A DNA stretch of 32,000 nt, taken from the NCBI GenBank assembly GCA_020160975.1, contig JAIUPJ010000001.1, positions 660,001 through 692,000 on the forward strand, in the 5' to 3' direction. The notes beneath the pieces were generated by a model that was not told where the DNA came from, ran no database searches, and worked only from the letters and a program-made list of their open reading frames with translations. The translations under genes and the position numbers were made by a program. Positions 9,974 to 25,556 of the stretch are shown here, piece by piece. The stretch is from Candidatus Saccharimonadota bacterium (GTDB taxonomy: Bacteria; Patescibacteriota; Saccharimonadia; Saccharimonadales; Saccharimonadaceae). Positions within the stretch are counted from its first letter, which is position 1; each line of letters starts with the position of its first letter.

Positions 9974-11814
9974 ACCAATCAAACATTAGAAACTTTTGTA
10001 TTATAGCGCATATCGATCACGGCAAGTCGACGTTGGCCGATCGTATGATGGAGATGACGAGAACGGTTGAAAAGCGCGACATGAAGTCGCAGTTGCTCGA
10101 TAGTATGGATCTCGAGCGCGAAAAAGGAATCACCATCAAACTCGCGCCTGTGAGGATGAAGTATAAAGACTGCGATCTCAACTTGATCGACACTCCGGGG
10201 CATGTCGACTTCAGTTACGAGGTATCGCGCAGCTTGCAGGCTTGTGAGGGCGCGGTATTGGTAGTTGACGCCAGTCAAGGAATTCAGGCGCAGACTCTCG
10301 CCAATGTATATTTGGCGCTGGAGCAGGATCTTGTGATTATTCCCGTGCTCAACAAAGTCGACTTGCCAGCAGCTGATGTTCCAAGAGTGAGTAAAGAAGT
10401 GATCAATCTACTCGGTTGTGATGAGTCGGATATTTTTCAAATTAGCGCCAAGACAGGAGAAAATGTCGATCAGGTACTGGAGGCTATTATTGAACGAGTC
10501 CCACCACCCGTTTCTCCCCTCGCCTCATCATTATTGCAAGATAATTTATCTGTTAAGGGTTTATCCTTTAACAAAGAGAGCGCCTTGCGAGTGCCGACGC
10601 GTGCGTTGATTTTTGATTCGTATTACGATGATTATCGAGGGGTGATTTTGTACTTGCGCGTCATCGACGGTACGATCAAGAAATCTGATGCGATTAAGAT
10701 GCTGGCGACAAGTGCAAATGGCATTGCACTCGAAGTAGGGCATTTGGCACCCACTATGTCACCCGACCCCGAACTTTCGACTGGAGAAATTGGCTATATG
10801 GTCACAAATCTCAAGACAACTCGTGACGCGCGGGTGGGCGACACGGTGACGGTAGCGCGCGCGATGGCTGTCGAACCGCTGCCAGGATATAAAGACGTGA
10901 AACCATTTGTCTACGCTGGGTTTTTCCCGGTTAGCAATGAAGACTATCAGGATCTCAAAGATGCGATTGAAAAATTGAGCCTGAGCGACAGCGCCTTGCA
11001 ATTTGAACCAGAGAATTCACCCGTTCTCGGCTTTGGTGTGCGGATTGGATTCCTGGGGCTTCTTCACATGGATATCGTGCGGGAGCGACTGGAGCGTGAA
11101 TATAGCCTTGACCTTGTGGTGACAAATCCTTCGACTGACTATCATATTTCTATGACAAATGGTGACGAGCTGGATATCAAAAGTGCCAGTGAACTTCCGG
11201 ATCGTGCGCAGGTAGAAGAGATCAGAGAGCCATGGATCAAGGGTGAGATTGTGGTACCGCAAGAGTACATCGGTGCGGTAATTCAGCTGATCGTCGGCAA
11301 GCGTGGACGCCAGAACAACCTCAGTTACATTGATGAGCGCGCCTTGATTAGCTTTGAAGCGCCACTGGCAAATTTGCTGACTGATTTTTATGACCAGCTA
11401 AAGAGTGTGACGAGCGGCTATGGCTCGTTTAACTACGAGCTAGCCGATTATCGAGCAGAAGATCTTGTGCGTGTTGATTTCTATGTCGGTGGCGAGATGG
11501 TGGATGCGCTTTCAGTCATGTGTCATCGCAGCGAGGCCGATGCGTTAGGCCGCGATGTCACAAAGAAACTGAAAGAAGTTGTGCCGCGCCAAAGTTTTGA
11601 GGTCGCACTGCAAGCAGCAATCGGAGGGCGATACATTGCTCGTGAAACTATCGGCGCCTACCGCAAAGACGTGACGGGATATTTGTATGGCGGTGACGTC
11701 TCTCGTAAGAAAAAACTTCTCGCCAAGCAAGCGAAGGGCAAGAAGCGCATGAAACGGTTCGGTAAAGTCGATATCCCGTCCGAGGCATTTACGGTGATGC
11801 TGAAAAGAGACTAG
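9970..11814 (+). CDS. lepA: translation elongation factor 4 (LepA)
   Basis: G motifs are AHIDHGKST, DTPGH and NKVD. The LepA-specific C-terminus is ...YGGDVSRKKKLLAKQAKGKKRMKRFGKVDIPSEAFTVMLK. ATGA overlaps the murJ stop. Confidence 0.97.
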   Translation: MNQSNIRNFCIIAHIDHGKSTLADRMMEMTRTVEKRDMKSQLLDSMDLEREKGITIKLAPVRMKYKDCDLNLIDTPGHVDFSYEVSRSLQACEGAVLVVDASQGIQAQTLANVYLALEQDLVIIPVLNKVDLPAADVPRVSKEVINLLGCDESDIFQISAKTGENVDQVLEAIIERVPPPVSPLASSLLQDNLSVKGLSFNKESALRVPTRALIFDSYYDDYRGVILYLRVIDGTIKKSDAIKMLATSANGIALEVGHLAPTMSPDPELSTGEIGYMVTNLKTTRDARVGDTVTVARAMAVEPLPGYKDVKPFVYAGFFPVSNEDYQDLKDAIEKLSLSDSALQFEPENSPVLGFGVRIGFLGLLHMDIVRERLEREYSLDLVVTNPSTDYHISMTNGDELDIKSASELPDRAQVEEIREPWIKGEIVVPQEYIGAVIQLIVGKRGRQNNLSYIDERALISFEAPLANLLTDFYDQLKSVTSGYGSFNYELADYRAEDLVRVDFYVGGEMVDALSVMCHRSEADALGRDVTKKLKEVVPRQSFEVALQAAIGGRYIARETIGAYRKDVTGYLYGGDVSRKKKLLAKQAKGKKRMKRFGKVDIPSEAFTVMLKRD

Positions 11815-11930
11815 TGTGGTAGCACTCCGCCGTTTCATCATCGTGCGCCCGCACGATGCTTTAGGGGGAGGAGAGCTGCTTTTGGATTTATTCCAAAACA
11901 GCGAGGAGGGGTGTGCCCCTCCTAAAGATG

Positions 11931-11984
11931 GGTAAAGTCGACATCCCGTCTGAGGCATTTACTGTGATGCTGAAAAGAGACTAA
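11931..11984 (+). repeat. displaced duplicate of the last 54 nt of lepA (last 17 codons plus stop)
   Basis: Copy 11931-11984 versus 11761-11814 differs at 4 positions: gat/gac, tcc/tct, acg/act and tag/taa. All four are synonymous. Confidence 0.9.
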
Positions 11985-12000
11985 GGTGTTAGAATAAAGT

Positions 12001-12573
12001 ATGGAAAAGAAGCATATTATTACAATCGGCGGGCTGCTTGGATCGGGCAAGTCTTCGGCCGCCAAGCTTGTCGCTGAGAAGCTAGCGTACACGCATTATT
12101 CTGCAGGTGACTTGATGCGTCAGCTTGCCAAAGAGAACGGCTATGACGATATCCGTGATTTTAATCTTGCAAGTGAGGGCACAACATCTGCTGACGATCA
12201 GGTAGATGAGCGTACACGGCAGATTGGTGAAACAGGGAGTAACATCGTGTTCGACGGGCATATGTCTTGGCGGTTTATTCCCGGTTCGTTTAAAGTATTT
12301 TTGACGCTTGATTCACGGATGGCAGCAGAGCGTATTCTTGGTAGTATGACACCAGAGCGCAAGGCGTCAGAGCATGTAACTGATGATGCCAGCGCATACG
12401 CGAAACTCCTCGATGAGAGGAAAAGCAGCAACGTTCGTAGATACGAGGCATTATATGGAGTTGACCCGTACCGCCCTGATTACTATGACTGTATTATTGA
12501 TACGCGCGATTCGAATCTCGAGCAGGTAGCTGAGAAGATTATCAATGCATACGAATTATGGCTCAAAGACTAG
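12001..12573 (+). CDS. cytidylate kinase-like P-loop NMP kinase (archaeal-type Cmk family)
   Basis: ITIGGLLGSGKSSAAKLVAEKL is a P-loop. The pattern SAGDLMR...VFDGHMSW...FKVFLTLDSRMAAERI...YDCIIDT matches the cytidylate_kin2-type family. Confidence 0.7.
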   Translation: MEKKHIITIGGLLGSGKSSAAKLVAEKLAYTHYSAGDLMRQLAKENGYDDIRDFNLASEGTTSADDQVDERTRQIGETGSNIVFDGHMSWRFIPGSFKVFLTLDSRMAAERILGSMTPERKASEHVTDDASAYAKLLDERKSSNVRRYEALYGVDPYRPDYYDCIIDTRDSNLEQVAEKIINAYELWLKD

Positions 12574-12596
12574 CACTCTACTTGTCTGAGTGCTAG
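12570..12596. promoter_or_regulatory. CIRCE operator (HrcA binding site) with embedded hrcA promoter -35
   Basis: CTAGCACTC-tacttgtct-GAGTGCTAG is a perfect 9-N9-9 inverted repeat. TTGTCT (12582-12587) is followed by 17 nt, TACAAT (12605-12610), 7 nt and then ATG 12618. The operator overlaps the cmk-like stop codon. Confidence 0.9.
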
Positions 12597-12617
12597 ATTT
12601 TTGCTACAATATATCGT

Positions 12618-13334
12618 ATGAACATCACCGATCGTCAAAGAGCAATTCTCGCAACAATCATCGAGCAGTATGCAGAGATCGCTGCACCAGTTGGTAGTGT
12701 GACATTGGCGAAATTATTCGGCGTATCGAGTGCGACGATTCGCAGTGAAATGGCAAAGCTAGAGGATATCGGATTGATCGAAGCGCCGCATACCAGCGCT
12801 GGTCGTATCCCGACTGACAAAGGGTATCGATTGTATGTCAATGGAATTACTGATGCGCAGATGACCGAACTTCCCAGCGGCGTTGATCGCAGTGCGAGAG
12901 CGATTGAAGCACACTTGAACTCACATGTTGACAAAGCTGATCGAGCAATTCGTAGTGCCGTCGACAGTCTCGCTCAATTGACTGGTAACATGGGATTCGC
13001 AACGATTGGTAGCGAGTTATACACAAATGGCATCGGTACATTGTTTAGCCAGCCGGAGTTCATCGAAGGTAGGCACGTGCAAGCAGTGGCGCGGTTGATC
13101 GACAATATCGAGCCGTGGTTACGAGAGGCTGCACCGAACCAACCGCTCAACGTGTTTATCGGCAGTGAGAATCCGATCGGCAAAACGAGCGGCGCAACAT
13201 TGATTATCAGTAAATTTCGTTCACCATTTAGTGACAACAGTTACATTGGCGTGATTGGCCCGACTCGCCAGAACTATGTCCGTACCATGATGTTGGTGCG
13301 CAAAACAGGAACGATGCTTGAGGAGGCATTATAG
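12618..13334 (+). CDS. hrcA: heat-inducible transcription repressor HrcA (short form, 238 aa)
   Basis: The N-terminal winged helix is RQRAILATIIEQYAEIAAPVGSVTLAKLFGVSSATIRSEMAKLEDIGLIEAPHTSAGRIPTDKGYRLYV. The C-terminal motif is YIGVIGPTRQNYVRTMMLV. A CIRCE lies upstream and grpE downstream. Confidence 0.92.
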   Translation: MNITDRQRAILATIIEQYAEIAAPVGSVTLAKLFGVSSATIRSEMAKLEDIGLIEAPHTSAGRIPTDKGYRLYVNGITDAQMTELPSGVDRSARAIEAHLNSHVDKADRAIRSAVDSLAQLTGNMGFATIGSELYTNGIGTLFSQPEFIEGRHVQAVARLIDNIEPWLREAAPNQPLNVFIGSENPIGKTSGATLIISKFRSPFSDNSYIGVIGPTRQNYVRTMMLVRKTGTMLEEAL

Positions 13335-13336
13335 AT

Positions 13337-13795
13337 ATGGCAAAGAAAGACGACAAACGAGATGCGCAAATTGCTGAGCTAACCGCTGATTTACAGCGGA
13401 TGCGAGCGGATTTTGAGAATTATCGAAAGCGTGTCGACGGTGAGAAATCACAAGCCAAAGAGCAGGGCGCAGCCTCTACTGCGCTAAAGCTCCTTCCTGT
13501 TATCGACACCATTGAACGTGCAATTCTGCATATTCCACCGGACATTGCAGAACATCCATGGGTACAGGGCGTGGCGGGGCTCATCAAGCAGCTTGATAAA
13601 GCACTCGCTGATATGGATATCGCCCGGATTGATGCGACACCAGGTGTAAAGTTCAATCCCGAACAACACCAGGCCATTCAAATGGACGAGGAGGCAAAAG
13701 GGGATCACGAGGTGGTGGCTGAGGAATTACAGGCAGGATATCTTCTCCGCGGCCAGCCAATTCGCCATGCCATGGTAAAAGTCACTCGTGCATAG
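13337..13795 (+). CDS. grpE: nucleotide exchange factor GrpE
   Basis: GAGGAGG SD is upstream. A coiled N-terminus (LQRMRADFENYRKRV) is followed by LLPVIDTIERA and a C-terminal GYLLRGQPIRHAMVKV beta domain. Confidence 0.93.
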   Translation: MAKKDDKRDAQIAELTADLQRMRADFENYRKRVDGEKSQAKEQGAASTALKLLPVIDTIERAILHIPPDIAEHPWVQGVAGLIKQLDKALADMDIARIDATPGVKFNPEQHQAIQMDEEAKGDHEVVAEELQAGYLLRGQPIRHAMVKVTRA

Positions 13796-13809
13796 TGAAA
13801 AATTTCTAT

Positions 13810-13842
13810 AAAAATCGGACAAGTTGTCCGATTTTTTATTTT
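13810..13842 (+). terminator. intrinsic terminator of hrcA-grpE
   Basis: AAAAATCGGAC-aagtt-GTCCGATTTTT is followed by TATTTTTG. Confidence 0.85.
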
Positions 13843-13864
13843 TGCACCCCTGTCACTAAGCGAA

Positions 13865-13891
13865 CTAGCACTCTTGACAGTAGAGTGCTAG
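13865..13891. promoter_or_regulatory. CIRCE operator with embedded dnaK promoter -35
   Basis: CTAGCACTC-ttgacagta-GAGTGCTAG. TTGACA (13874-13879) is followed by 17 nt and TATCAT (13897-13902). Confidence 0.9.
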
Positions 13892-13912
13892 TTCGCTATC
13901 ATAGGAGCAGAA

Positions 13913-13939
13913 TTGGCACTATCCTGCGAGGAGTGCCAA
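13913..13939. promoter_or_regulatory. second, variant CIRCE-like inverted repeat in the dnaK leader
   Basis: TTGGCACTA-tcctgcgag-GAGTGCCAA keeps the 9-N9-9 geometry. The A-to-G change is mirrored in both arms. It lies just downstream of the predicted dnaK -10. Confidence 0.6.
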
Positions 13940-14092
13940 TCAATTACCTGAAAATCTAATGCAATAACAAGAGAAAGGGGAAGCGCGAAGGGAAAAACAC
14001 AGCCGGATCGACGAATCTACTTCGTCGTCCGCGCGATAGGAAAAGCCGTAGGTTTGTCCTATACAGTGAACCCTTTGGGCGAACGAAGAATT

Positions 14093-15988
14093 ATGGGAAA
14101 AATTATCGGAATCGACCTCGGAACAACCAACAGTGCTTTTGCATACCTTGTGGCAGGCAAGCCAGAAGTGATCGCAAACGCCGAGGGTAACCGCACGACG
14201 CCAAGCGTCGTGGCGGTTAATAAAGGTGGCGAACGTCTTGTCGGTCAGGTGGCTCAGCGCCAGCGCGTGACGAACGCCAAAAATACCATTTATGGTATCA
14301 AGCGGTTAATTGGCCGTAAGTTTGACGACAAAGAAGTCCAGAAAGATATTGACATCATGCCATTCAAAATCGTCAAGCACGCCAATGGTGTTGGTGTAGA
14401 GATGGGCGGCAAAGAATATACACCAGAAGAAGTATCGGCTATGATCTTGAGCAAGATCAAGGCAGACGCTGAGGCATTCTTGGGGGAAAAAGTGACCGAA
14501 GCAGTTATCACAGTGCCAGCATACTTTGATGACTCTCAGCGCCAAGCGACCAAAGACGCTGGCAAGATTGCCGGGCTAGAAGTCAAGCGTATCATCAATG
14601 AACCAACGGCAGCAGCGCTCGCCTATGGTCTCGAAAAAGGCAAAGAAGAAAAGATCGTGGTGTTTGACCTCGGTGGCGGTACGTTCGACGTATCAGTTCT
14701 TGAGCTTGGCGATGGGGTATTTGAAGTCAAGAGCACCAATGGTGACACGCACCTCGGTGGCGAAGACTTTGACAATGCGATCGTGAATTACTTCATCGAT
14801 GAATTTAAAAAGACCGATGGTATTGATCTCAAGAAAGACAATGCTGCCATGCAGCGACTCAAGGACGAGGCTGAAAAGGCTAAGAAAGAACTATCGACGA
14901 CGACCGAGTACGAAGTTAATATCCCGTTCATCACGGCTGATGCCGATGGACCTAAGCACTTTGAGCTCAAGCTCACCCGTGCCAAACTTGAAGAACTGGT
15001 CGCGCCATTGCTCAACCGACTTGATGATCCTGTCGAAAAAGCTCTCAAGGACGCCAAGCTTAACAAAAACGATATCGACAACATCGTATTGGTTGGTGGC
15101 ATGACGCGCATGCCCTCAGTCGTCGAGCGTGTCAAGAAGTTGTTTGGCAAAGACCCGATGCAGGGAGTGAATCCAGATGAGGTCGTGGCAATCGGTGCCG
15201 CGATTCAGGGCGGTGTTTTGGCAGGAGATGTGAAAGACGTGTTGCTCCTCGACGTGACGCCACTGAGCCTTGGCATCGAAACCATGGGCGGTGTCTCGAC
15301 CAAGTTGATTGAGCGCAACACTACAATTCCTACTAGCAAAAGCGAGGTCTTTTCGACCGCCAGTGATAATCAGCCACAGGTTGAGATCCATGTGCTGCAA
15401 GGTGAGCGCGAGTTCGCGGCCGATAACAAGAGTTTGGGCAAGTTTGTCCTTGATGGTATTGCGCCAGCGCCGCGTGGTGTACCACAAATCGAAGTCACGT
15501 TTAACCTCGACGCCAACGGTCTGTTGAATGTAACTGCCAAGGATAAAGGTACAGGTAAAGAGCAGTCGATTACTATTCAAGAATCTGGCAACATGAGCAA
15601 GGAAGATATTGAGAAGGCTCAAAAGGAGGCTGAGCTCCACGCTGAAGACGATAAGAAAAAACGTGAGTCGGTTGATCTCAAGAACCAGCTCGAAAATGCC
15701 ATCTATCAGGCAAAGAAAATGCCCGATGAATACAAGGATAAGATTTCCGATGAGGACAAGAAGGCAATTGAATCAGCCGTTGAAGAAGCCGAAAAGCACA
15801 AGGAATCGACCGATAAGGACGAGCTTGAGGCGGCAATCAAAGCGCTCAATGACGTGCTGATGCCAATCGGTGCCAAGATGTACCAGCAAGCGGCAGAAGA
15901 TGCCAAAGCTGATGAGTCGGAATCTGATGACAAAAAGTCAGGCAAAGACGAAGCGGTTGAAGGCGAGGTCGTTGACGACAAAAAATAG
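14093..15988 (+). CDS. dnaK: molecular chaperone DnaK (Hsp70)
   Basis: Motifs [24 protein letters not shown] and [10 protein letters not shown] are present, with an acidic C-terminal tail. The track start at 14054 is an upstream extension, so ATG 14093 gives the canonical N-terminus. Confidence 0.97.
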
Positions 15989-16005
15989 TTTTCTTGATGG
16001 AACGT

Positions 16006-16037
16006 AAAAAAACCGACCCATTCGTTGGGTCGGTTTT
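16006..16037. terminator. bidirectional intrinsic terminator between convergent dnaK and pilin genes
   Basis: AAAAAAACCGACCCA-ttcgt-TGGGTCGGTTTT has an A run on one side and a T run on the other. Confidence 0.85.
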
Positions 16038-16051
16038 GCTGGGGCATGATG

Positions 16052-16573
16052 CTATGAGGTTTGAGTGCAAGTTCCGGAGGTAACGCCAAGTGACAGCGGT
16101 GTCGATGCAGGAGCTTTTGTGCTGTAGTCGTATTTTGTCAGCCGCACGCCTGCACCGGGGGTATTTGTTACGGGAGCAGTGCAGAGCTCAACTTTTAGTG
16201 AAGTTTTGCCATTGGCTGCACTAGGAGTATTCGGTGTTGCGGTCGAAGGAATAGCGGTAAATGTTGCAGTGCCTACGCGAGATTCGCTATAGGTATTGAG
16301 GCTATTCACTAGCGCACCTGCCGCAGTGTTCGAAGGATACGCGCCAGCTAACGTATAGTATGCATGCATTTTCTTGGCAACATTATTGACCAACGTGTCT
16401 GCTGCCGAGTTATTTGCCCGAGCCTGCAATCCGGTATAACCGATAATGGTAATCGCTGCGAGAATGGCGATAATCACAACGACGATCAAGAGCTCGACGA
16501 TAGTAAAACCTTTTGTTCGAAACGGGAATTTCACAATCAATAGATGCCCCTTATTTGATATGCTGATAGGCAT
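16052..16573 (-). CDS. type IV pilin (prepilin-type N-terminal cleavage/methylation domain)
   Basis: ...RTKG|FTIVELLIVVVIIAILAAITIIGYTGLQARANN is the class III signal and pilin helix, with Glu at +5. There are two C-terminal Cys. The real start is probably TTG 16540 (AAGGGG 6 nt upstream), because a TGgTATACT extended -10 lies 1 nt from ATG 16573. Confidence 0.85.
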   Translation of the reverse strand: MPISISNKGHLLIVKFPFRTKGFTIVELLIVVVIIAILAAITIIGYTGLQARANNSAADTLVNNVAKKMHAYYTLAGAYPSNTAAGALVNSLNTYSESRVGTATFTAIPSTATPNTPSAANGKTSLKVELCTAPVTNTPGAGVRLTKYDYSTKAPASTPLSLGVTSGTCTQTS

Positions 16574-16692
16574 CAGTATACCATATGCATTTTTTCATTC
16601 AGAAATAGCTTATGGCAACGAATGGGCAGCTGCTCCGTTCCGAGTGTTGCACTTTGCTTGTGCTTTTCTGTCGAAACAGCTACCATGATGAC

Positions 16693-18339
16693 ATGGATCT
16701 GCAGAGTGAGCTCTCGAAGATTATTGAAGGCGATGTCGATACGAGCGATGAAACACGTGCATTTTATAGTCACGATGCGAGTCTTTTTGAATTGGTGCCG
16801 CAAGCAGTGGTGTTTCCTAGGTCGGCAGAGGATATCAAGGCACTGGTTTCATTTGTTACTACCCACAAGAAAGATCTCCCTAACCTGAGTCTGACCGCAC
16901 GCTCTCGAGGTACCGATATGTCCGGCGCAGCCATCAACGACTCGATTATTGTCGATACGAGTAAATACATGACCGCAATTCGAGAAGTTTCGGCAAAATC
17001 TGCAACGGCCGAACCGGGATTGATGTACAGAGATTTCGAAGCGAAAACATTGAAATTTGGGAGCATCTTGCCGAGCTACCCTGCAAGTCGCGAGTTGGCG
17101 GGGATCGGCGGTATTGTCAACAATAATTCAGGCGGTGAGAAATCGCTACAATACGGTAAGACAGACCGTTATACGAAACAGATGAAAATGGTACTCGCCG
17201 ACGGTAAAGAGTATGTCGTCAAGCCACTTACGCGCGCTGCTCTCAACAAAAAAATGAGCCAGGATGGTTTTGAAGGCCAACTCTACCGCCAGACATTCGA
17301 GCTTCTTGACATGAATTATGATGAAATCAAGCAAGCTGCCCCAAAAGTCAGCAAAGATTCGACAGGTTATCATTTGTGGAATGTCTGGGATCGAGAAAAG
17401 GGGATATTTGATTTGACACAACTGTTTGTGGGTGCGCAAGGTACGCTCGGTATCATGACCGAGGCAACACTCGGTCTCGTACCAAAAGCAAAATATTCGG
17501 GAACGCTGGTTTGCTACATGCCAAAAATTGACAACTTAGGTGAAGTAATTCCAGCGGTGTTGCGTGAACACCCAGCGACCTTCGAGTGTTTCGATGACAA
17601 TACACTGTGGCTTAGTTTTAAGTTTATCTTTTCATTTATCAAGCGGCTCGGTTTCATGACATGGTTCATTATGTGCATGCAGCTAATTCCCGATGGACTT
17701 GCCCTGCTTCGAGGTATCCCAAAGCTCATTTTGTTGATTGAGTTCACTGGTGATTCGGAAGAAGAAGTGCGCACTAAAGTTCGCACTGCAAGAAACAATT
17801 TGCGTGGCTTTGGGTTTAGTTATATCGAAGAAGACTCAACCGAAGCAGAAGCAAGAAAGTTCTGGCTGATGCGACGCGAAAGTTTTAACTTGCTTCGTAG
17901 TAAGGTGAAAGATAAGCACACCGCACCATTTATCGATGACCTAATTGTCCCCCCCGCCCGACTAGCCGAATTTTTGCCAAAACTTCGCAAAATAATCAAA
18001 AAATATAAATTGCTCGCCACAATTGCAGGGCATTTAGGTGACGGTAATTTTCATGTGATTCCGCTGATGAACATCGAAGACCCGAAAGAGCGCGCAAAGT
18101 TTGCGCCCGCAATGAAAGAAGTGAATAGCCTGGTTATTCGCTATGGTGGGAGTGTGAGTGGAGAGCACAATGATGGTATGATTCGCGGGCCATGGCTCAA
18201 AGAAATGTATAGCCCTAACGTGCTGGGATATATGAAAGAAATTAAAGCGCTTTATGACCCGATGAATATCTTTAACCCCCATAAAAAGACCGATGCAACC
18301 TGGGAATACAGCTTCAAACATATTCGTAAGAATTTTTAA
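16693..18339 (+). CDS. FAD-binding oxidoreductase (GlcD / D-lactate dehydrogenase-like)
   Basis: AVVFPRSAEDIKALVSFV and ARSRGTDMSGAAIN indicate a PCMH-type FAD domain. GHLGDGNFHV and YGGSVSGEHNDG are C-terminal motifs. ATG 16693 is preferred over the track start 16612, whose N-terminus looks non-protein-like. The start is uncertain. Confidence 0.8.
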   Translation: MDLQSELSKIIEGDVDTSDETRAFYSHDASLFELVPQAVVFPRSAEDIKALVSFVTTHKKDLPNLSLTARSRGTDMSGAAINDSIIVDTSKYMTAIREVSAKSATAEPGLMYRDFEAKTLKFGSILPSYPASRELAGIGGIVNNNSGGEKSLQYGKTDRYTKQMKMVLADGKEYVVKPLTRAALNKKMSQDGFEGQLYRQTFELLDMNYDEIKQAAPKVSKDSTGYHLWNVWDREKGIFDLTQLFVGAQGTLGIMTEATLGLVPKAKYSGTLVCYMPKIDNLGEVIPAVLREHPATFECFDDNTLWLSFKFIFSFIKRLGFMTWFIMCMQLIPDGLALLRGIPKLILLIEFTGDSEEEVRTKVRTARNNLRGFGFSYIEEDSTEAEARKFWLMRRESFNLLRSKVKDKHTAPFIDDLIVPPARLAEFLPKLRKIIKKYKLLATIAGHLGDGNFHVIPLMNIEDPKERAKFAPAMKEVNSLVIRYGGSVSGEHNDGMIRGPWLKEMYSPNVLGYMKEIKALYDPMNIFNPHKKTDATWEYSFKHIRKNF

Positions 18340-18351
18340 AATAATTCACTA

Positions 18352-18923
18352 ATGTCTCATTTGTTAAACTATCAAATTCGCCTGCTTCTCACAGTTGATT
18401 TTTTGGTGCTTGTTGCAGGAGCGCTCGTAATTCCCTTTTATTCAGTCTATGTAGAAAAAATCGGGGGAGTATTTTGGATGCAGGGCTGGCGGCGAGCGTT
18501 TTTGCGGTAGTTGCAGGACTGACATCTATTATTGCGGGTATGTAGAGTGACCGAATAAAGGCTAAGCCAATGGCGGTGGTTGCAGGGTACGCCCTAATCG
18601 GCATTGGGTTCCTTGCATACCTCGCAGTAACTGATGTATGGAGTTTGATGATTGTACAGGGATTTATCGGGCTATCAACCGCATTTTACCAGCCCGCATA
18701 CGATGTCATATACACGCACTTTGTCGGAAACGGGCGACGGGCAACGACGCGATGGGCATTGTGGGAGTCTGCAAATTATTTTTCTCTTGCAGTTGGTGCG
18801 GTGATTGGTGGGGGTATCGTGCAATATTTGGGATTTACGACATTGTTTATTGTCATGGCGGGACTGTCATGGCTGGCAGCAATCTTTTTGTATATTCACC
18901 TAAAGTCGTTGATATTTGAATAG
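18352..18923 (+). pseudogene. MFS transporter remnant (N-terminal half only; one frameshift and one in-frame TAG)
   Basis: Frame 1 reads MSHLLNYQIRLLLTVDFLVLVAGALVIPFYSVYVEKIGG. About 18465-18475 the sense shifts to frame 0: LDAGLAASVFAVVAGLTSIIAGM-TAG(18543-18545)-SDRIKAKPMAVVAGYALIGIGFLAY... It ends after about 6 TM segments at 18923. Confidence 0.7.
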
Positions 18924-18959: not shown

Positions 18960-18977
18960 TTGTCTATACTAAGAGAG

Positions 18978-20090
18978 ATGAGTGAAAAACGTGACTATTA
19001 TGAAGTGCTCGGTGTTGGCAAGACCGCCAGCGATGATGAGATAAAAAAAGCTTTTCGAAAAGCTGCTGTCAAGCATCACCCCGACAAAGAGGGTGGAGAC
19101 GAAGCCAAGTTTAAAGAAGTAAATGAAGCGTACGAAGTTTTAAAAGATAAGCAAAAGCGTCAACGCTATGACCAGTTTGGTCATGCCGGTGTTGGTGGCG
19201 CTTCTGGTGGTGGTGCGAGCGGCAATCCGTTCGAGGGTTTCAACTTCAATGGCCAAGACATTCATTTTGATTTTGGCGGTGGCGCCGGTGGTTTTGGTGA
19301 TTTGTTTGGACAATTTTTTGGTGGTGCAGCAGGTGGCCAGCGTGGGCCAAAGCGCGGACGCGACGTCGAGACCCGTCTGACGCTATCGTTCGAAGAAGCA
19401 ATTTTTGGCAAAGATGAAACGATTCACCTCAGTCTTGACGACGAGTGTTCACACTGTCATGGCACGACTGTTGAGCCGGGTCATGAGCTCAAGACTTGTC
19501 CAGACTGTAAGGGCGCAGGACAACAAGTTCGCCTCATGAATACAATGTTTGGCCAGATTCAACAAGCGGTGACATGCGAAACATGTCGTGGGCAAGGCAA
19601 GGTGCCAGAAGTAGTCTGTACGGTATGTAAAGGCAGGGGGACCGAGCGCCGTGAGCAAGCGATCAAAGTCAAGATTCCGGCAGGTATTGACGAAGGTGCC
19701 ACGATTCGCCTGCAAGGACATGGCGAAGCAATTGCTGGTGGCAAAAAGGGCGATCTCTATGTACATATACGAGTAAAAGCACACAAAAAATTCACCCGCG
19801 AAGGAGACCTAGTGCTCAGCGAAGAGCATATTGGCATGGTAGACGCGGCACTTGGATGTGAGGTAAATGTTGATACGGTCGACGGCAAGGTAACGATGAA
19901 AGTACCCGCCGGTACACAGAGCGGCACTGACTTCAAGTTATCTGGGCACGGCGTGCCGCATCTGCGCAGTGAAACCCGCGGTGCGCATATCGTCAGCATT
20001 GTTGTTGATACACCGACAAAGCTCAGCAAAAAGCAGCGGGAACTCCTCGAAGAATTTCAGGGAGCCAAAAAACGTTCAATTTTTGGCTAG
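18978..20090 (+). CDS. dnaJ: molecular chaperone DnaJ (type I Hsp40)
   Basis: The J domain is DYYEVLGV...KHHPDK. A Gly/Phe-rich region follows. There are four CxxCxGxG zinc motifs ([32 protein letters not shown]). The track start at 18960 is a TTG extension. Confidence 0.95.
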
Positions 20091-20922
20091 TTTAGTGGAA
20101 CTGCAACGAGAGTTTTGGCTAGTGCGATTTCGAACGCCTCACGTAGGTTGTTGATGGCGCTTTGTTTTGTTGCTAAGGTCTCTTGGTCGTGAGTGATTGA
20201 AGTATTGTACTCGACCTGGAGGGACTGTACAGGGTGGGAAATGCCATGAACGCGTAAGAGCGTTGCGTTGCGCCGTGAGGAATAGTGGCGTGTGAGGTAC
20301 CCACCACGGTAGACAAGAATGAGATGGATATCAGTGGGTTGGTTGCGTATCGCGAGCTCGTGCTCAAATAATATTTTAGTGTGGTGGGCAGCTCGGCAGA
20401 GCAGCTGGTTGGTTCGCCGTCTGCTTCAGCCGTTTCTTCTCCGCCGCGATTTGATAGCACGAATGAGGGCATTGTGACTTCTTCATTTGATTTGTTTTTG
20501 CCTATCACATAATGTGCCGTGTTGTCCCAAGCGACGACAAGCACCGGTTTGTCGGCAGCACGTAGTTGAGTGACTATCTCGCCATGAAAGGGCTTATAAA
20601 ATCGTGCATGTAGCTCGTTTTTCTCCGCTTCACTCAATTATTTGCCTTTCTTCCGAATTCTGTGCCGAAGCGGCTTTGCGTAGTCTTAATCCTGGAATCT
20701 GCCTAGATCATCAGGATTTCTGTTGAGATCACCCAGCGCGCGACTGTGCTTGGCGATAATTGTCGCGATGCCGATCTGCGGCACTGTCTCAGCGGTGTCA
20801 TAGTCTGAAGATCGAATCTTTTCATCTTCTGATAACGCGCAGCGTTCAGCCAGTTCATGGAAAACATGGCTCGCATGATGTGCAGCGTAGATACTATGAC
20901 GCAGACACGCGTCATTATACAT
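20087..20922 (-). pseudogene. N-formylglutamate amidohydrolase (FGase)-family gene, disrupted by two in-frame TAA codons and one frameshift
   Basis: The N-terminal part ends ...IIAKHSRALGDLNRNPDD (SRlviDlNR-like). TAA codons sit at 20688-20686 and 20640-20638 in the same frame as the next segment (LHARFYKPFHGEIV). The C-terminal family motif VYRGGYLTRHY...VQSLQVEYN is readable only in another frame, open from 20425 to TAG 20089-20087. TATAAT lies 6 nt upstream of ATG 20922. Confidence 0.55.
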
Positions 20923-20968
20923 GAGAGAATTATAGCATGATAGGTTAGAGTAAGAAGCAAAGATTATA

Positions 20969-20997
20969 TTGACTAAAAACAATGCATGTGATATAAT
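20969..20997 (+). promoter_or_regulatory. near-consensus sigma70-type promoter of the DUF1704-like gene (leaderless arrangement)
   Basis: TTGACT is followed by 17 nt and TGaTATAAT, which is an extended -10. The ATG at 21004 lies 6 nt after the -10. Confidence 0.65.
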
Positions 20998-21003
20998 ATA
21001 AAC

Positions 21004-22421
21004 ATGAAAATAGACCACTCATCTCTAGATAGCAAGCTGATTAACCACTTGAATGCGCCGTCATCTTTTATTGACTATGCTCGTTTTGAAGACAGTAATA
21101 CCGCGCGTAAAACTGCTCAGAACGATTTTGTAAATGGCGAGGTATACACCCCTGATTATCGTTATCCAAAACTCACACATCTCTACGATACTGACGATAA
21201 AGGTAGTTCGATTTCAGAAAAAAATCGAAGACATACGAAGCGATTCTTGAGCTTGAAGCCCACAAAAATACGGGATATCTGCCAGAAAGTGTATTTGAGC
21301 TATATGCCTCATATCACGAAGCTCGACTCAAGAAGATGATGCTTGTTGAAGCAGCAAAACGTCTACATGAGCCTGGAACATCTTCGCAACAGATGGTAGC
21401 ACGTGAAGAGTATACTTTTTTGAATAAAGAGCTCTATGGGGAGATGAACGTTGAGGCATTTTCTGCGATTATGGCCACCGAGTCTCGTCGAGTTGAGGAG
21501 TTTATTCCGTCAAACGGCCCAGCCACCCAAATTAAGTCAGAGCTGCTGGACTATTTCAGGCAACATAAATTTAGCGGTGTCGAAAAGTGCCATCTTTCAG
21601 ATGAAGAGATGAGTAGAATGAAGGAGTCAATTGATAAGAGGTATACTCATTGCCTTGAACCTATTCCCGATACCCAAGACGATGTTTATTACGATGCGCA
21701 GGAGTGCGTGGCTATAATGAATAGCTGCCTTTTGGCGAGCGGTCTAGCTAAAGCTGGTTGGATATGCGAAGTAAATCCTACAAAAGCAAACCCTGCAACA
21801 AATGAAGGTGCAAAAAAGATATTTCTTCCTGCTACAACTTGTCGTAATGCTGCAGAGCTACGCCGACTGTACCTACACGAGGGTGAAGTTCATGCACGCC
21901 GAGCATATAACGGCAGCTTGACCGACATCGTCCCTCTTGAAAAAGGTACGGCAAACTATGCCGATGTTGAGGAGGGGCTGGGTGTTGTTTTGGAGGCAAT
22001 AGACTCAGGCGATATGACATCAAGTGCTGCATATAATCGTGCGCGCGATCGCTACATCCTTGCAGGCTTGGCGCTTGGCACTGATGGCCATCCAAAAGAT
22101 GGACGATCTTCGTACGAAATAATGTGGCGACTAGTAGCACTTAGAGGTAGTAAAGACGGTACTATTTCTGAACAAGATATCATCAGTGCTAAGCAGCAGG
22201 CGACAGCCCATAGCGATAACGCTTTTCGTGGAACAAATTTTGCGATGCCCGGCGTTATCTACTCTAAATTAAAAGTCTACTATGAAGGACTGGCAAAGAA
22301 TGTCACCTATCTTCGAGATCATATAGACACTCTCGATGAAGCACTAGATATTGCAATGACAGGCAAGTATGATCATACTGATCAGCACGAAAGAAGTCAT
22401 GTACGAAACTTAGTCATGTAG
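21004..22421 (+). CDS. DUF1704 / MATCAP-like metallocarboxypeptidase (QEGLA-motif family), frame interrupted by a -1 shift at an A7 tract
   Basis: HEGEVHARRAYNG is an HExxxH motif followed by NG. GTANYADVEEGLGVVLE is the QEGLA-like motif. The two track ORFs (21004-21339 and 21336-22421) join into one sensible sequence, ...ISEK(K)SKTYEAILELEAHKNTGYLPESVFELYASYHEARLKKMMLVEAAKRL..., if the frame shifts by -1 at A_AAA_AAT (21219-21225). Confidence 0.65.
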
Positions 22422-22443
22422 GTGATATGAAGTTCTGTATATC

Positions 22444-23235
22444 ATGAAAATACTTTTAGTAACAACTGGTCGAGATTTATCAGTTAGCTTTTTTAAGTCG
22501 ATCGCAAACGTGCATTGTGATGTGGCTGAATTTGGTAAAGACCTGCCCCTTAGTTTGCTCGACACCTACGACATTGTTTATTTTCGGGACCCGTTTGTAG
22601 TAAGTGACTATAGTCTATCTGCAATTGAACGGACGATTTCTGATACTCATGCGCGCTACCCGCATAGCTACTATGTTGATCGCGTTGAAAGTCTGTCGGA
22701 TGTACTCTTCGAAGATAAGTGGCTGCAGTATCAGCACTATCGGCAGTATATGCCGCTCACGGCGCAGGTTGATGAGGGGAAATTGGATCAAGGCATGATA
22801 GCGAAAAAGAGAATATCATCACGCGCACGTGACATAGTATTCTCTGAAGACGACGTTAGTTTTAGTGAGTCCGATGCAGATTTATTTATCATGCAAGAAA
22901 AAATTGACATTATTCGAGAATACCGAGTATATGTTGTTTGTGGTGATGTTTTGCCACTTGTTTCTACTAAACAAAGTAAAACTGTAAGTCAGAAAGCAAA
23001 AGTCACCGATATCTTGGCGGCACCTATTGAGCTACTAGAATTTGTGAAGTTGGTACTGCTAGAAGGTCCACAGTTCGATTTTATCGGTTTGGATGTCGCC
23101 GAGACTAATAATGGATATGTGTTGATTGAGGTAAATCGAGCTCCGCAGTTCGTCCGATACAATCAGATTTTAGGTGTTAATCTCGCAGCGCAACTAGTAG
23201 AAAAAATTACATCACACTCTTTACTATTTAAGTAG
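22444..23235 (+). CDS. divergent ATP-grasp ligase (RimK-like paralog)
   Basis: 263 aa. MKILLVTTG is a pre-ATP-grasp start like RimK. KKRISSRARDIVF sits in place of KP.GS.G.GV. LFIMQEKIDIIREYRVYVVCGDVL and FIGLDVAETNNGYVLIEVNRAPQF (E..N Mg ligands) fit the family. The gene is visibly AT-rich. Confidence 0.6.
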   Translation: MKILLVTTGRDLSVSFFKSIANVHCDVAEFGKDLPLSLLDTYDIVYFRDPFVVSDYSLSAIERTISDTHARYPHSYYVDRVESLSDVLFEDKWLQYQHYRQYMPLTAQVDEGKLDQGMIAKKRISSRARDIVFSEDDVSFSESDADLFIMQEKIDIIREYRVYVVCGDVLPLVSTKQSKTVSQKAKVTDILAAPIELLEFVKLVLLEGPQFDFIGLDVAETNNGYVLIEVNRAPQFVRYNQILGVNLAAQLVEKITSHSLLFK

Positions 23236-23257
23236 AAAGTAGTATAGTATACAAGTT

Positions 23258-23788
23258 ATGGTAGTACAAAAGACAACCATTGGCCGCACTGCCTCCGCTG
23301 CGTTTCCTGCGGAAGGAATTCATGATGTACCGGTAAAGATTGATACCGGTGCCGATAGCTCGTCGATATGGGCGAGTGAGCTCCATATGTCGAAAAGTGG
23401 GGTTTTGAGCTTTACTCTGTTTGGTATAGGCTCTCCGTACTATTCAGGCAAACGACATACAGCCAAAAATTATACCGCTAGCCTGATACGCAGCTCAAAT
23501 GGTAATGCGCAGATTCGCTACAAGGTACCGTTATCTATTGAGCTGGAAGGCCGTAAGATTCGTGGCACCTTTACCCTTGCGGATCGCTCGAAAAACACCT
23601 ATCCTGTGCTAGTGGGCTGTGCGTTGCTCAATAAGAAATTTGTAGTAGATGTATCGAAGCGATCAAAGATAAGGCCACCCGCACAGCACGAAAAGATCGG
23701 GGCCTTGACCGAAGAACTCAAGCAAGATCCACTCGGATTTTTTGAGAAATATCATATTGATAACCAGCGTGGAGATATAGAATTATGA
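23258..23788 (+). CDS. retropepsin-like protease of the RimK-associated 'ATP-dependent zinc protease' family (RimB-like)
   Basis: GRTASAAFPAEGIHDVPVKIDTGADSSSIWA carries a DTGA aspartic-protease signature. YPVLVGCALLNKKFVVD is also present. The stop overlaps the rimK start (ATGA). Confidence 0.75.
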   Translation: MVVQKTTIGRTASAAFPAEGIHDVPVKIDTGADSSSIWASELHMSKSGVLSFTLFGIGSPYYSGKRHTAKNYTASLIRSSNGNAQIRYKVPLSIELEGRKIRGTFTLADRSKNTYPVLVGCALLNKKFVVDVSKRSKIRPPAQHEKIGALTEELKQDPLGFFEKYHIDNQRGDIEL

Positions 23789-24696
23789 AAATTGCCATTC
23801 TCAGTAACGGAACAGGAAACTACTCTACCAAGCGACTCAAAGAAGTCGCCATTGCGCGTGGGCATGAAGTTAAGGTTATAAAGTACCGAGAGTGCTATGC
23901 CAGTATTGAGAAAAACAATCCAACAGTAAGTTACCGTGGTGAAGATCTGTCTGGATATGATGCTATTATCCCGCGTATCGCTAGTTATATGACTCGCTAT
24001 GGCACGGCCATTGTGCGTCAGCTTGAAATGCAGGGCGTGTATACTATTTCGAGTTCGATTGCGATCACGAGGAGTCGAGATAAACTTCGCAGTATGCAGC
24101 TACTCGCAAAAGCAGGAGCGGGCGTGCCAAAGACGGTATTTAGTCGCAATTCAACTGATATTGATGACCTCATCGAAAAACTTGGTGGTACACCAGTTAT
24201 CATCAAGCTGGCGCGTGGTACGCACGGTAATGGCGTGGTGCTTGCGGAGAGCAAGAAAGCTGCAAAATCTGTACTGCAGGCGTTCTACTTGAGCAATGAT
24301 GATGGTACGAACATTTTAATTCAAGAGTTTATCAAAGAATCAGCCGGTACCGATATCCGCGCCTTTGTGGTGGGAGGACGAGTCGTCGCGAGCATGAAGC
24401 GACAAAGTCTCGACGACGATTTTCGTAGTAATCTGCACAAGGGTGGAGAAGGCACTATCATTAAGCTCACTGAAGAGGAGCGCAAAATGGCGATCAAAGC
24501 GGCAAAAGCGATGGGACTTAATGTTGCCGGTGTTGATATGATGCGCAGTGATCGTGGCCCGCTGATTCTTGAAGTCAATGCCAGTCCAGGGTTTGGTATA
24601 GAAAAAGTCACAGGTCGAGATGTCGCGACACCAATCATTGAGTATATCGAGCGTAATGCTAAGCGTGGACACAAAAAGGACAAAGTAGGAGCATAG
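23785..24696 (+). CDS. rimK: RimK-family alpha-L-glutamate ligase (ribosomal protein S6 glutamate ligase type)
   Basis: MKIAILS...STKRLKEVAIARGHEVKVI is the N-terminus. VIIKLARGTHGNGVVLAE, LIQEFIKESAGTDIRAFVVGGRVVASMKR and GVDMMRSDRGPLILEVNASPG are ATP-grasp motifs. Confidence 0.9.
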   Translation: MKIAILSNGTGNYSTKRLKEVAIARGHEVKVIKYRECYASIEKNNPTVSYRGEDLSGYDAIIPRIASYMTRYGTAIVRQLEMQGVYTISSSIAITRSRDKLRSMQLLAKAGAGVPKTVFSRNSTDIDDLIEKLGGTPVIIKLARGTHGNGVVLAESKKAAKSVLQAFYLSNDDGTNILIQEFIKESAGTDIRAFVVGGRVVASMKRQSLDDDFRSNLHKGGEGTIIKLTEEERKMAIKAAKAMGLNVAGVDMMRSDRGPLILEVNASPGFGIEKVTGRDVATPIIEYIERNAKRGHKKDKVGA

Positions 24697-24938: not shown

Positions 24939-25418
24939 ATGACCTTTTTGATCGTTCTCGGCATTTACTTTGCAGCACTGTTTCTCGTTGGCTGGATGTC
25001 GCGACGGAGCATGGGGTTTCCGGCCCTCACTCTTGCAGCCGGTGCGCTGATTGCAGATTTGTGGACAGACAGCCTGACACCGGTGGTTGCGCAATCGGGG
25101 TTGGTGATCGTCAAACCGCCACTTGAGAGTCTGGTGGCAATTGTATTGACATTGCTACCGGCGTTTGTCGTGATGATGCGTGCGCCAAAGATGGCGAGCA
25201 AACACCATGGATGGTTTGGTTCGCTCGTGTTTGCAACGCTAGGTGTCATGCTAACCTATGCGGCATTTAGCAATGCGGTTGTGCTCGATGAAGGAAGCAA
25301 GGATATTGTGCGACAGATTTTTAGCCGCGAGGCGATTATTACGACTGCTGCAATTTTGCTCGCTGTACTCGAAGTGTTACTGTACCGCAAACCGCATACG
25401 CATGACAAGCATAAATAG
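24939..25418 (+). CDS. hypothetical membrane protein (about 4-5 TM segments)
   Basis: 159-aa hydrophobic ORF. TATAAT (24926-24931) lies 7 nt before the ATG. No family recognised. Confidence 0.55.
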   Translation: MTFLIVLGIYFAALFLVGWMSRRSMGFPALTLAAGALIADLWTDSLTPVVAQSGLVIVKPPLESLVAIVLTLLPAFVVMMRAPKMASKHHGWFGSLVFATLGVMLTYAAFSNAVVLDEGSKDIVRQIFSREAIITTAAILLAVLEVLLYRKPHTHDKHK

Positions 25419-25479
25419 TAGAAACAATGAGATTGACAGGGGTGATGTCTCAGTGGTATAGTCATAAAGTTACCTTTAC

Positions 25480-25556
25480 GGGTCCGTAGCTCAGCTGGTT
25501 AGAGCACCTGCCTTTTAAGCAGGGTGTCATGGGTTCAAGCCCCATCGGACCCTCCA
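25480..25556 (+). tRNA. tRNA-Lys (UUU)
   Basis: GGGTCCG TA GCTC AGCTGGTTA GAGC A CCTGC CTTTTAA GCAGG GTGTC ATGGG TTCAAGC CCCAT CGGACCC T CCA is a perfect cloverleaf with CCA encoded. An extended -10 TGgTATAGT sits at 25454-25462. Confidence 0.95.

Follow-up and report, generated by a model that had tools for sequence, protein, structure and literature searches.

The 32,000-nucleotide stretch of DNA analysed here (the window; contig JAIUPJ010000001.1, positions 660,001 to 692,000 of the forward strand) comes from a Saccharibacterium, a member of the Candidate Phyla Radiation (CPR), and between dnaJ on its left and a tRNA-Lys/comEC region on its right it carries a cluster of ligase and peptidase genes whose products are a MATCAP/DUF1704-like carboxypeptidase, a divergent ATP-grasp ligase (here called GRASP2), a RimB-like aspartic peptidase and RimK. 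We consider it moderately probable that this cluster is a Saccharibacterial RimK C-terminal polyglutamylation system that has been enlarged by accessory tail-editing enzymes. The RimB–RimK core of such a system is already known; what appears to be new is that a second ligase and a carboxypeptidase of the MATCAP fold are systematically added to it. The original prediction, made from the DNA letters, had proposed a writer/eraser system for protein tails that joined two modules (DUF1704 plus ATP-grasp, and RimB plus RimK) and included an amidohydrolase of the N-formylglutamate amidohydrolase (FGase) fold. A conserved, non-random neighbourhood of ligases and peptidases was indeed found, and profile hidden Markov model (HMM) searches upheld the family calls for all five products, but neither the split into two modules nor the inclusion of the FGase survived. 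Two further features of the region had been missed, namely that the MATCAP-like gene is frameshifted and that half of the supposed island is a strain-variable imported cassette, with rimB–rimK as the resident part. The features of the region are as follows:

18960..20090, plus strand: dnaJ, the conserved left neighbour (Pfam DnaJ, DnaJ_C and CXXCXGXG domains)
~20087..20922, minus strand: pseudogene of the FGase fold (N-formylglutamate amidohydrolase family; Pfam FGase fragments, tblastn to the FGase of locus L012)
20969..20997, plus strand: sigma-70-like promoter, TTGACT-17 nt-TATAAT with TG-n (11/12 consensus positions)
21004..22421, plus strand: MATCAP/DUF1704-like gluzincin carboxypeptidase gene, frame-interrupted (PF08014; HEGEVH and EEGLG)
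22444..23235, plus strand: GRASP2, divergent RimK/LysX-like ATP-grasp ligase, 263 aa (R2K_3 and RimK Pfam matches; predicted fold)
23258..23788, plus strand: RimB-like retropepsin-type aspartic peptidase, 176 aa (PF05618; DTG in KIDTGADSS)
23785..24696, plus strand: canonical RimK (alpha-L-glutamate ligase), 303 aa (NF007764; overlaps rimB by ATGA)
24939..25418, plus strand: 159-aa predicted membrane protein directly downstream of rimK (no Pfam or NCBIfam match)
19957..23285, no strand: recombinant/imported tract with the dnaJ 3' end, the FGase pseudogene, the MATCAP-like gene, GRASP2 and the first rimB codons (identity profile against locus L010)

How general is this arrangement among related genomes? 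A scan of 185,579 species genomes with an alignment of the MATCAP-like protein gave 17 loci, all of which appear to lie in Saccharibacteria-type metagenome-assembled genomes (several of the records carry generic or other labels), and tblastn mapping placed dnaJ, MATCAP, the RimB-like gene, RimK, the 159-aa membrane protein and comEC in that series in essentially all 17. Wherever enough downstream sequence was available the MATCAP gene is followed by RimB and RimK (16/16 loci), and the genes are contiguous with a variable internal order. Because the cluster recurs in 16/16 assessable related loci, it is more than a chance juxtaposition, as had been anticipated. In most of the loci MATCAP accompanies RimB–RimK without GRASP2, and the conserved core is MATCAP–RimB–RimK and not two modules. 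RimB–RimK occurs without MATCAP in L002 and L030–L034, and MATCAP was never seen without RimK, which fits an accessory role for MATCAP. The small membrane protein has tblastn matches 3' of rimK in most loci, with 27–85% identity across Saccharibacteria. Within the window the GC content drops to 0.42–0.44 over 21–24 kb.

The rimB–rimK pair is present in all strains of this species that were examined. RimK scores 352.3 against the cutoff of 331 for NF007764 ("30S ribosomal protein S6--L-glutamate ligase"), has two Pfam domains, RimK at 205.8 bits and Rimk_N at 121.3 bits, and is similar to the RimK proteins of Pseudomonas and E. coli at E = 1e-91 to 1e-100, among them P. aeruginosa RimK 7QYR with E = 8e-100 over residues 1–292; it is thus the canonical RimK that it had been taken for. 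The product of the gene upstream has PF05618 (50.9 bits, cutoff 27) and the DTG motif in KIDTGADSS, in agreement with its earlier identification as a RimB-type retropepsin-like protease, and the DTGA motif is kept in its homologues and in fusion proteins. It scores 54.9 bits with the RimB equivalog model NF052261, below the cutoff of 200, and for this reason we call it RimB-like and not a demonstrated orthologue. The predicted translational coupling is seen as an ATGA overlap at 23785–23788, and the same coupling occurs in L007, L012, L013 and L030–L034. RimK is unusually conserved (67–94% identity across loci, compared with 61–88% for DnaJ), and the identical 303-aa protein is indexed in 74 public-collection blocks, 22 carrier contigs of which were examined.

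RimK adds alpha-linked Glu onto ribosomal protein S6 at its C-terminus and can make poly-alpha-Glu, and RimB is an endopeptidase that needs at least 5–6 contiguous Glu, stimulates RimK and depends on the catalytic Asp of its DTG motif; RimB–RimK hybrids with protease activity have already been described (PMC11957791). The window cluster resembles the Pseudomonas RimABK/RimBK systems (PMC4741518, PMC7343187, PMC11957791) in its canonical RimK, in the translationally coupled PF05618/DTG protease gene upstream of it, in the protease::ATP-grasp hybrids of related loci and in the lateral exchange by which rim genes evolve. It differs from them in having no RimA (EAL) gene, in the low RimB equivalog score of its protease (55 against 200) and in its host, which is a reduced CPR epibiont, and it adds a MATCAP-type metallocarboxypeptidase and a second, non-RimK ATP-grasp ligase, neither of which is described in those papers.

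The product of 21004–22421 belongs to the DUF1704/MATCAP-like family in which it had been placed, but its gene is not the single open reading frame (ORF) that had been assumed. A 361-aa fragment scores 44.1 bits with PF08014 (cutoff 27), and this domain is present in all 120 homologues listed of the 221 found. The HEGEVH and EEGLG motifs of the window product represent an HExxxH zinc site and the EEG motif that carries the third ligand, and across 56 MATCAP-like sequences H292, E293, H297, E324 and G325 are invariant and E323 is present in at least 90%; several Arg/Lys residues, R281, R346 and R350 among them, are invariant as well. We built an AlphaFold2 model on the orthologue P0045 with the 56-sequence alignment (mean predicted local distance difference test score, pLDDT, 94.7; predicted template modelling score, pTM, 0.92), and its only Foldseek match in the PDB at E <= 0.001 was human apo MATCAP (7z5g_D; E = 3.1e-5, probability 1.00, template modelling (TM) score 0.52 normalised by the target, 14% identity), so that the structural check bore out the family call. 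A sequence-profile search of the PDB gave no meaningful match even at E = 10. The kinship to human MATCAP is thus real but distant.

Work on MATCAP at tubulin tails is reportedly that of Landskron et al. 2022. The human TMCP1/2 enzymes of the MATCAP family have HExxxH and EEG motifs; they take off first Tyr and next Glu from acidic tails, and they also deglutamylate tubulin (PMC10499314). In the tubulin tail cycle (TTL/TTLL with MATCAP/TMCP1-2; PMC10499314), as in the window, an ATP-grasp writer of Glu or of a terminal residue is paired with a carboxypeptidase of the MATCAP fold that carries HExxxH...EEG, and the human enzymes both detyrosinate and deglutamylate. Unlike that cycle, the present cluster has ligases of RimK/LysX type and not TTL type, its target is presumably a ribosomal protein, the carboxypeptidases share 14% identity with a TM score of ~0.4–0.5, and the Saccharibacterial system is known from sequence and models. 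Membership of the MATCAP-like protein in the TIGR02421 "QEGLA motif protein" family, which is likewise a DUF1704/MATCAP family with an xEGLx motif (EEGLG here), was ruled out, since the match is partial and scores 51.9 against a cutoff of 338.65 (52 against 339). In proteobacteria TIGR02421 proteins are presumably paired with TIGR02291 (alpha-L-glutamate ligase-like) proteins, as database annotation has it.

That neighbourhood has a likeness among the Saccharibacteria in L014 (1077–3325), which holds a second, divergent MATCAP paralogue that overlaps a 309-aa ATP-grasp gene by 4 nt; the proposed pairing of DUF1704 with an adjacent ATP-grasp gene is therefore a true one there, and it is rejected for GRASP2. 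L020 (11422–14527) also holds a second paralogue (the two are 437–440 aa long), and after it comes a 616-aa protein that has an HELSH motif but matches nothing in Pfam. In L029 (10001–10527) the MATCAP-like gene is internally deleted, with remnants that correspond to query residues 15–133 and 410–471, and this locus retains a RimB::ATP-grasp fusion and RimK.

In the window the MATCAP-like gene is split by a -1 frameshift into two ORFs, 21004–21339 and 21336–22421. The lesion is a 1-nt deletion in the poly-A run at 21218–21224, which has seven A residues here and eight in L010 and L011, where an intact 472-aa protein (P0045) is encoded that is 97% identical to the repaired window product (the DNA of L010/L011 and of the window is 93.5% identical over the aligned 4.4 kb). 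Downstream of the frameshift 400 codons are still open, and the deletion reflects either an error of sequencing or an inactivation that is very recent. A second lesion of this kind lies outside the cluster: a small gene for a major facilitator superfamily (MFS)-type transporter at 18352–18923 is broken into ORFs of 52 and 117 aa through the loss of 1 nt from the G run at 18462 (five G residues in the window, six in three conspecific contigs, L032 and L033 among them), and the gene is intact in conspecific contigs (187–190 aa). Since both frame-breaking 1-nt deletions lie in homopolymers, they point to sequencing error or replication slippage.

The near-consensus promoter that had been noted before the MATCAP-like gene was recovered (TTGACT-17-TG-n-TATAAT, 11/12 positions with an upstream TG); it is the joint best in the region and ends 6 nt before the ATG. 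Similar -10 boxes, in strong -35/-10 promoters, lie 5–9 nt 5' of the MATCAP-like ATG in L010, L015, L019, L020, L023 and L025, and no Shine-Dalgarno sequence precedes the starts that have such close -10 boxes. The short distance implies a leaderless or near-leaderless mRNA in the window and, with the missing Shine-Dalgarno sequence, suggests that MATCAP-like genes are transcribed as leaderless mRNAs in several Saccharibacteria.

GRASP2 is the divergent ATP-grasp ligase that it had been predicted to be. It exceeds the Pfam cutoffs of R2K_3 (29.6, cutoff 26.3) and RimK (26.7, cutoff 21), gives a marginal match to R2K_2, and with a score of 30.8 against 143 for rimK_fam it falls outside the curated RimK family. 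Its catalytic set is intact, K121, R123, E159, D217 and E229-x-N231 (LIEVN) being invariant across the family. An AlphaFold2 model (pLDDT 88.3) has the three-domain ATP-grasp fold, and its best structural matches are ArgX 3vpb (E = 6e-14, TM 0.71) and LysX/ArgX 5k2m, followed by RimK 4iwx and graspetide ligases (TM 0.70–0.72 to ArgX, LysX and RimK), all of them ATP-grasp enzymes whose substrates are carboxylates of proteins or peptides, as expected from the proposed assignment; the sequence match to LysX/ArgX is weak (profile E ~1e-6) and covers the C-terminal half only. LysX/ArgX attach an amino acid to the small protein LysW at its C-terminal Glu; in contrast to that system the present locus has no LysW-like carrier and no lysine or arginine biosynthesis genes. 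R2K.3 proteins are marked by ExGD in place of ExN in the last strand (PMC4431377), and since GRASP2 has the canonical ExN, its marginal R2K_3 match is not read as membership, which we regard as ruled out. Like the R2K clade (CDC123, R2K.2, R2K.3; PMC4431377), whose members are predicted to be peptide ligases that modify proteins and in some cases come with a second ligase, GRASP2 stands beside another ligase, but its best folds are RimK/LysX and it has no GNAT, ARG or phage association.

The GRASP2 family is small: a word search gave 44 clusters, and at E <= 1e-30 there are 122 representatives in 1.84 billion. Its gene follows MATCAP in the window, L010/L011 and L023, precedes it in L007 and L008, lies between RimB and RimK in L002 and L003 (both of which have no MATCAP), and is beside RimB in L009. 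It adjoins RimB in four of five arrangements, and in P0015 and P0027 it is fused N-terminally to a RimB domain. GRASP2 is variable and tracks RimB. RimB::ATP-grasp fusions of ~450 aa, accompanied by a separate canonical RimK, are present in five MATCAP loci (L014, L016, L017, L019 and L029). A Saccharibacteria-type contig with no MATCAP or RimB (L004, 7001–10454) holds three ATP-grasp genes in ~3.5 kb, two of them GRASP2-family copies and the third RimK-like (~295 aa).

The FGase had been correctly described as to its family, its disruption and its minus-strand position. Its fragments score 28.7 and 16.5 bits with PF05013 (cutoff 28.9), and in tblastn it is 66% and 55% identical in two frames (E = 4e-88) to the intact 280-aa FGase of L012 (P0297, which has PF05013 and carries the NCBI name N-formylglutamate amidohydrolase). 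Two in-frame TAA stops and one or more frameshifts interrupt it; both stops are common to the window and L010, and the frameshifts differ between the two. The gene is a genuine old pseudogene. Next to MATCAP an FGase stands only in L012, where it is intact, and in the window/L010 lineage, where it is dead. The 17 MATCAP loci of the genome scan are all without one, and MATCAP, GRASP2, RimB, RimK or dnaJ is near the FGase in 0 of 24 other loci of its subfamily (these include one cyanobacterium and one Peregrinibacterium), so that the FGase is ruled out as a member of the system. A dN/dS value (ratio of nonsynonymous to synonymous rates) for the pseudogene was discarded as implausible for such a near-identical pair, stop characters having probably disturbed the codon alignment. 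In L035 (5511–10478, from the cyanobacterium Dulcicalothrix desertica) an FGase-subfamily gene lies between a PGA_cap gene (CapA-like, poly-gamma-glutamate synthesis) and an M3 peptidase gene, neighbours that may hint that this subfamily acts on glutamyl peptides.

Comparison with conspecific and related contigs showed where the left half of the cluster differs from its surroundings. In the conspecific contigs L030–L034 the order is dnaJ, 63 nt, rimB and rimK; the cassette is absent from them, window positions 20091–23275 (3,185 bp with the FGase pseudogene, the MATCAP-like gene, GRASP2 and the rimB start) correspond to 81 bp, and the flanks on both sides are 97.6–98.7% identical to the window. 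With L010 the relationship is reversed: its backbone (dnaK, a flavin adenine dinucleotide (FAD) oxidase gene and most of dnaJ) is only ~70–86% identical to the window, and from ~20004 to the end of the L010 contig identity is 94–99%, mostly 97–99%. The synonymous divergence (dS) from L010 is 1.2 for dnaJ (whole gene), 0.03 for MATCAP and 0.05 for GRASP2. Three-way alignment places the left breakpoint at ~19906–19957 in the 3' end of dnaJ, the window matching conspecific L033 to ~19957 and being of L010 type thereafter (the last ~135–185 nt of dnaJ are thus imported), and the right breakpoint at ~23276–23290 in the first rimB codons. We interpret the block of FGase pseudogene, MATCAP and GRASP2 as the product of a recent interspecies exchange by homologous recombination, in which dnaJ and rimB would have served as the arms. 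MATCAP and GRASP2 move jointly as a cassette.

What might such a set of enzymes do? By analogy with the characterised relatives of these ligases and peptidases, which act on acidic C-terminal tails and so make a writer/eraser reading reasonable, we infer that RimK and GRASP2 write and that the RimB endopeptidase and the MATCAP-type exopeptidase erase; what the enzymes act on, how they share the work and which chemistry GRASP2 and the MATCAP-like enzyme perform belong to the same inference. RimK would add alpha-linked Glu onto a C-terminal Glu, with S6 as the acceptor by analogy, and may also make free poly-alpha-Glu; the RimB-like retropepsin would trim runs of Glu. The MATCAP-like enzyme would be the exopeptidase arm and supply an activity that RimB lacks, removing C-terminal residues singly from the acidic tail, and its targets might be short Glu stubs that RimB cannot cut, a non-Glu cap or the native terminal residue. 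The second ligase, whether stand-alone GRASP2 or a RimB-fused ATP-grasp domain, would be a second writer that works with RimB and adds a different residue or primes a different acceptor. A second ligase is present in about a third of lineages, and a MATCAP-type gene lies directly upstream of RimB–RimK in most Saccharibacteria.

Several observations weigh against this reading. The MATCAP-like family is far from human MATCAP (14% identity, TM 0.38–0.52, no HMM match in the PDB), and this distance, together with the score far below the TIGR02421 cutoff, means that the specificity of the human enzyme is not transferable. With E. coli, B. subtilis and T. thermophilus S6 queries, tblastn found no S6 gene (rpsF) in the window or in 58 loci. 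In L001, L005 and L006 GRASP2 stands alone, with no rim gene near it. The dnaJ...comEC backbone is syntenic across the phylum, so that clustering could largely reflect shared ancestry, and conspecific strains live without the cassette. The dN/dS of 0.32–0.36 against L010 rests on only ~20 substitutions per gene. Because MATCAP is frameshifted and the FGase is dead, the cassette may have no function in the strain represented by the window.

Could the product instead be a free peptide or polymer, for instance poly-alpha-glutamate or a short acidic peptide, that is polymerised or capped by RimK and GRASP2 and depolymerised for recycling by RimB and the MATCAP-like enzyme? RimK does make free poly-alpha-L-glutamate and is stimulated by RimB in doing so (PMC11957791), PDB entry 5zct bears the title "poly-alpha-L-glutamate peptides synthetase RimK", stepwise building of peptides is frequent among linked ATP-grasp ligases (PMC4431377), and the cluster has no substrate gene and a conserved small membrane protein 3' of rimK. 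We nevertheless think this explanation unlikely, as the RimK found here is by its NCBIfam score the S6-ligase equivalog, the nearest folds of GRASP2 (ArgX/LysX, RimK and graspetide ligases) act on protein or peptide substrates, and characterised MATCAP enzymes work on protein tails. That the genes are neighbours through inherited synteny and share no function, the MATCAP-like gene merely lying between dnaJ and rimB ancestrally, is distinctly improbable in our judgement. The whole dnaK...dnaJ...comEC-yebC-ruvC backbone is collinear across loci, and the site can take up unrelated genes, as the FGase demonstrates; however, the gene order is shuffled with contiguity kept (GRASP2–MATCAP–RimB–RimK in L007, MATCAP–GRASP2–RimB–RimK in the window and L023, RimB–GRASP2–RimK in L002), ligase and protease are joined by domain fusions, extra MATCAP paralogues come with extra ATP-grasp genes (L014, with its 4-nt overlap), and the families are biochemically complementary.

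A different kind of doubt concerns the window itself, whose junctions and frameshifts could be artefacts of a chimeric metagenome contig made from two co-occurring Saccharibacteria that were joined where dnaJ and rimB have short identical stretches, with homopolymer miscalls. The left breakpoint does lie in a ~50-bp stretch that is near-identical in all three sequences, and there are the two frame-breaking homopolymer deletions (A7 vs A8, G5 vs G6), but natural recombination would use the same homology arms, and the cassette is 1–3% different from L010 and so is no copy of the L010 population. Because the dnaJ–FGase pseudogene–MATCAP–GRASP2–rimB arrangement is found independently in L010 and L011, which are from other samples, and because MATCAP at the dnaJ–rimB site is the norm of the phylum, we rate a chimera below recombination and give it a low probability; it would in any case bear only on the structure of one strain and not on the reality of the system. 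Least credible, and in our opinion very improbable, is that the cluster is a conflict or defence module that modifies proteins of phages or of the host bacterium and not those of its own ribosome. GRASP2 is marginally above the Pfam R2K_3 cutoff and a role in phage–host conflicts has been proposed for R2K.2/R2K.3 ligases (PMC4431377), the cassette varies among strains and is exchanged horizontally, and Saccharibacteria are epibionts. Against this, PADLOC found no match for any of the proteins, no homologues were found in 50,697 phage records or 72,556 plasmids, GRASP2 has ExN and not the ExGD of R2K.3, and the linkage is to a housekeeping-type RimK.

Two observations concern the right border of the cluster. 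The tRNA-Lys (UUU) gene at 25480–25556 has its own near-consensus promoter, TTGACA-18-TATAGT (together window 25433–25556). In L030 the 159-aa gene and comEC are separated by a segment of ~7 kb (11634–18903) that holds genes for a resolvase and a PIN-domain protein and several unknown ones; since other strains have no such segment, it is probably a mobile element beside the tRNA.

To our knowledge RimK/RimB is the only well-studied case of reversible editing of protein C-terminal tails in bacteria, and nearly all work on it has been done in Pseudomonas and E. coli. Literature searches on DUF1704, QEGLA and Saccharibacteria with RimK found nothing relevant, and no description was found of a MATCAP-type enzyme combined with RimB–RimK and a second ligase, in accordance with the earlier view that the combined arrangement is uncharacterised. 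The link between RimB–RimK and a MATCAP-fold enzyme supplies a first concrete and testable hypothesis on the substrate of the bacterial DUF1704 proteins, a large uncharacterised family, namely poly-Glu or capped acidic tails. The system resides in ultra-small CPR genomes in which few genes are dispensable, and yet one half of it varies between strains and is exchanged laterally, and strains with and without the cassette are naturally available for comparison. The logic of the tubulin tail cycle, an ATP-grasp writer with a MATCAP eraser, is suggested to have a prokaryotic origin. More tentatively, and as a possibility to which we attach rather little weight, Saccharibacteria might run a two-writer/two-eraser "tail code" on a ribosomal protein, with RimK and the second ligase as writers and the retropepsin and the MATCAP-type exopeptidase as erasers. 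If so, the ancestral job of MATCAP/DUF1704 would be to erase tails that ATP-grasp ligases have written, a bacterial system of this kind would be the ancestor of the eukaryotic tubulin detyrosinase/deglutamylase, and the accessory half would be a mobile cassette that is swapped among strains and tunes translation.

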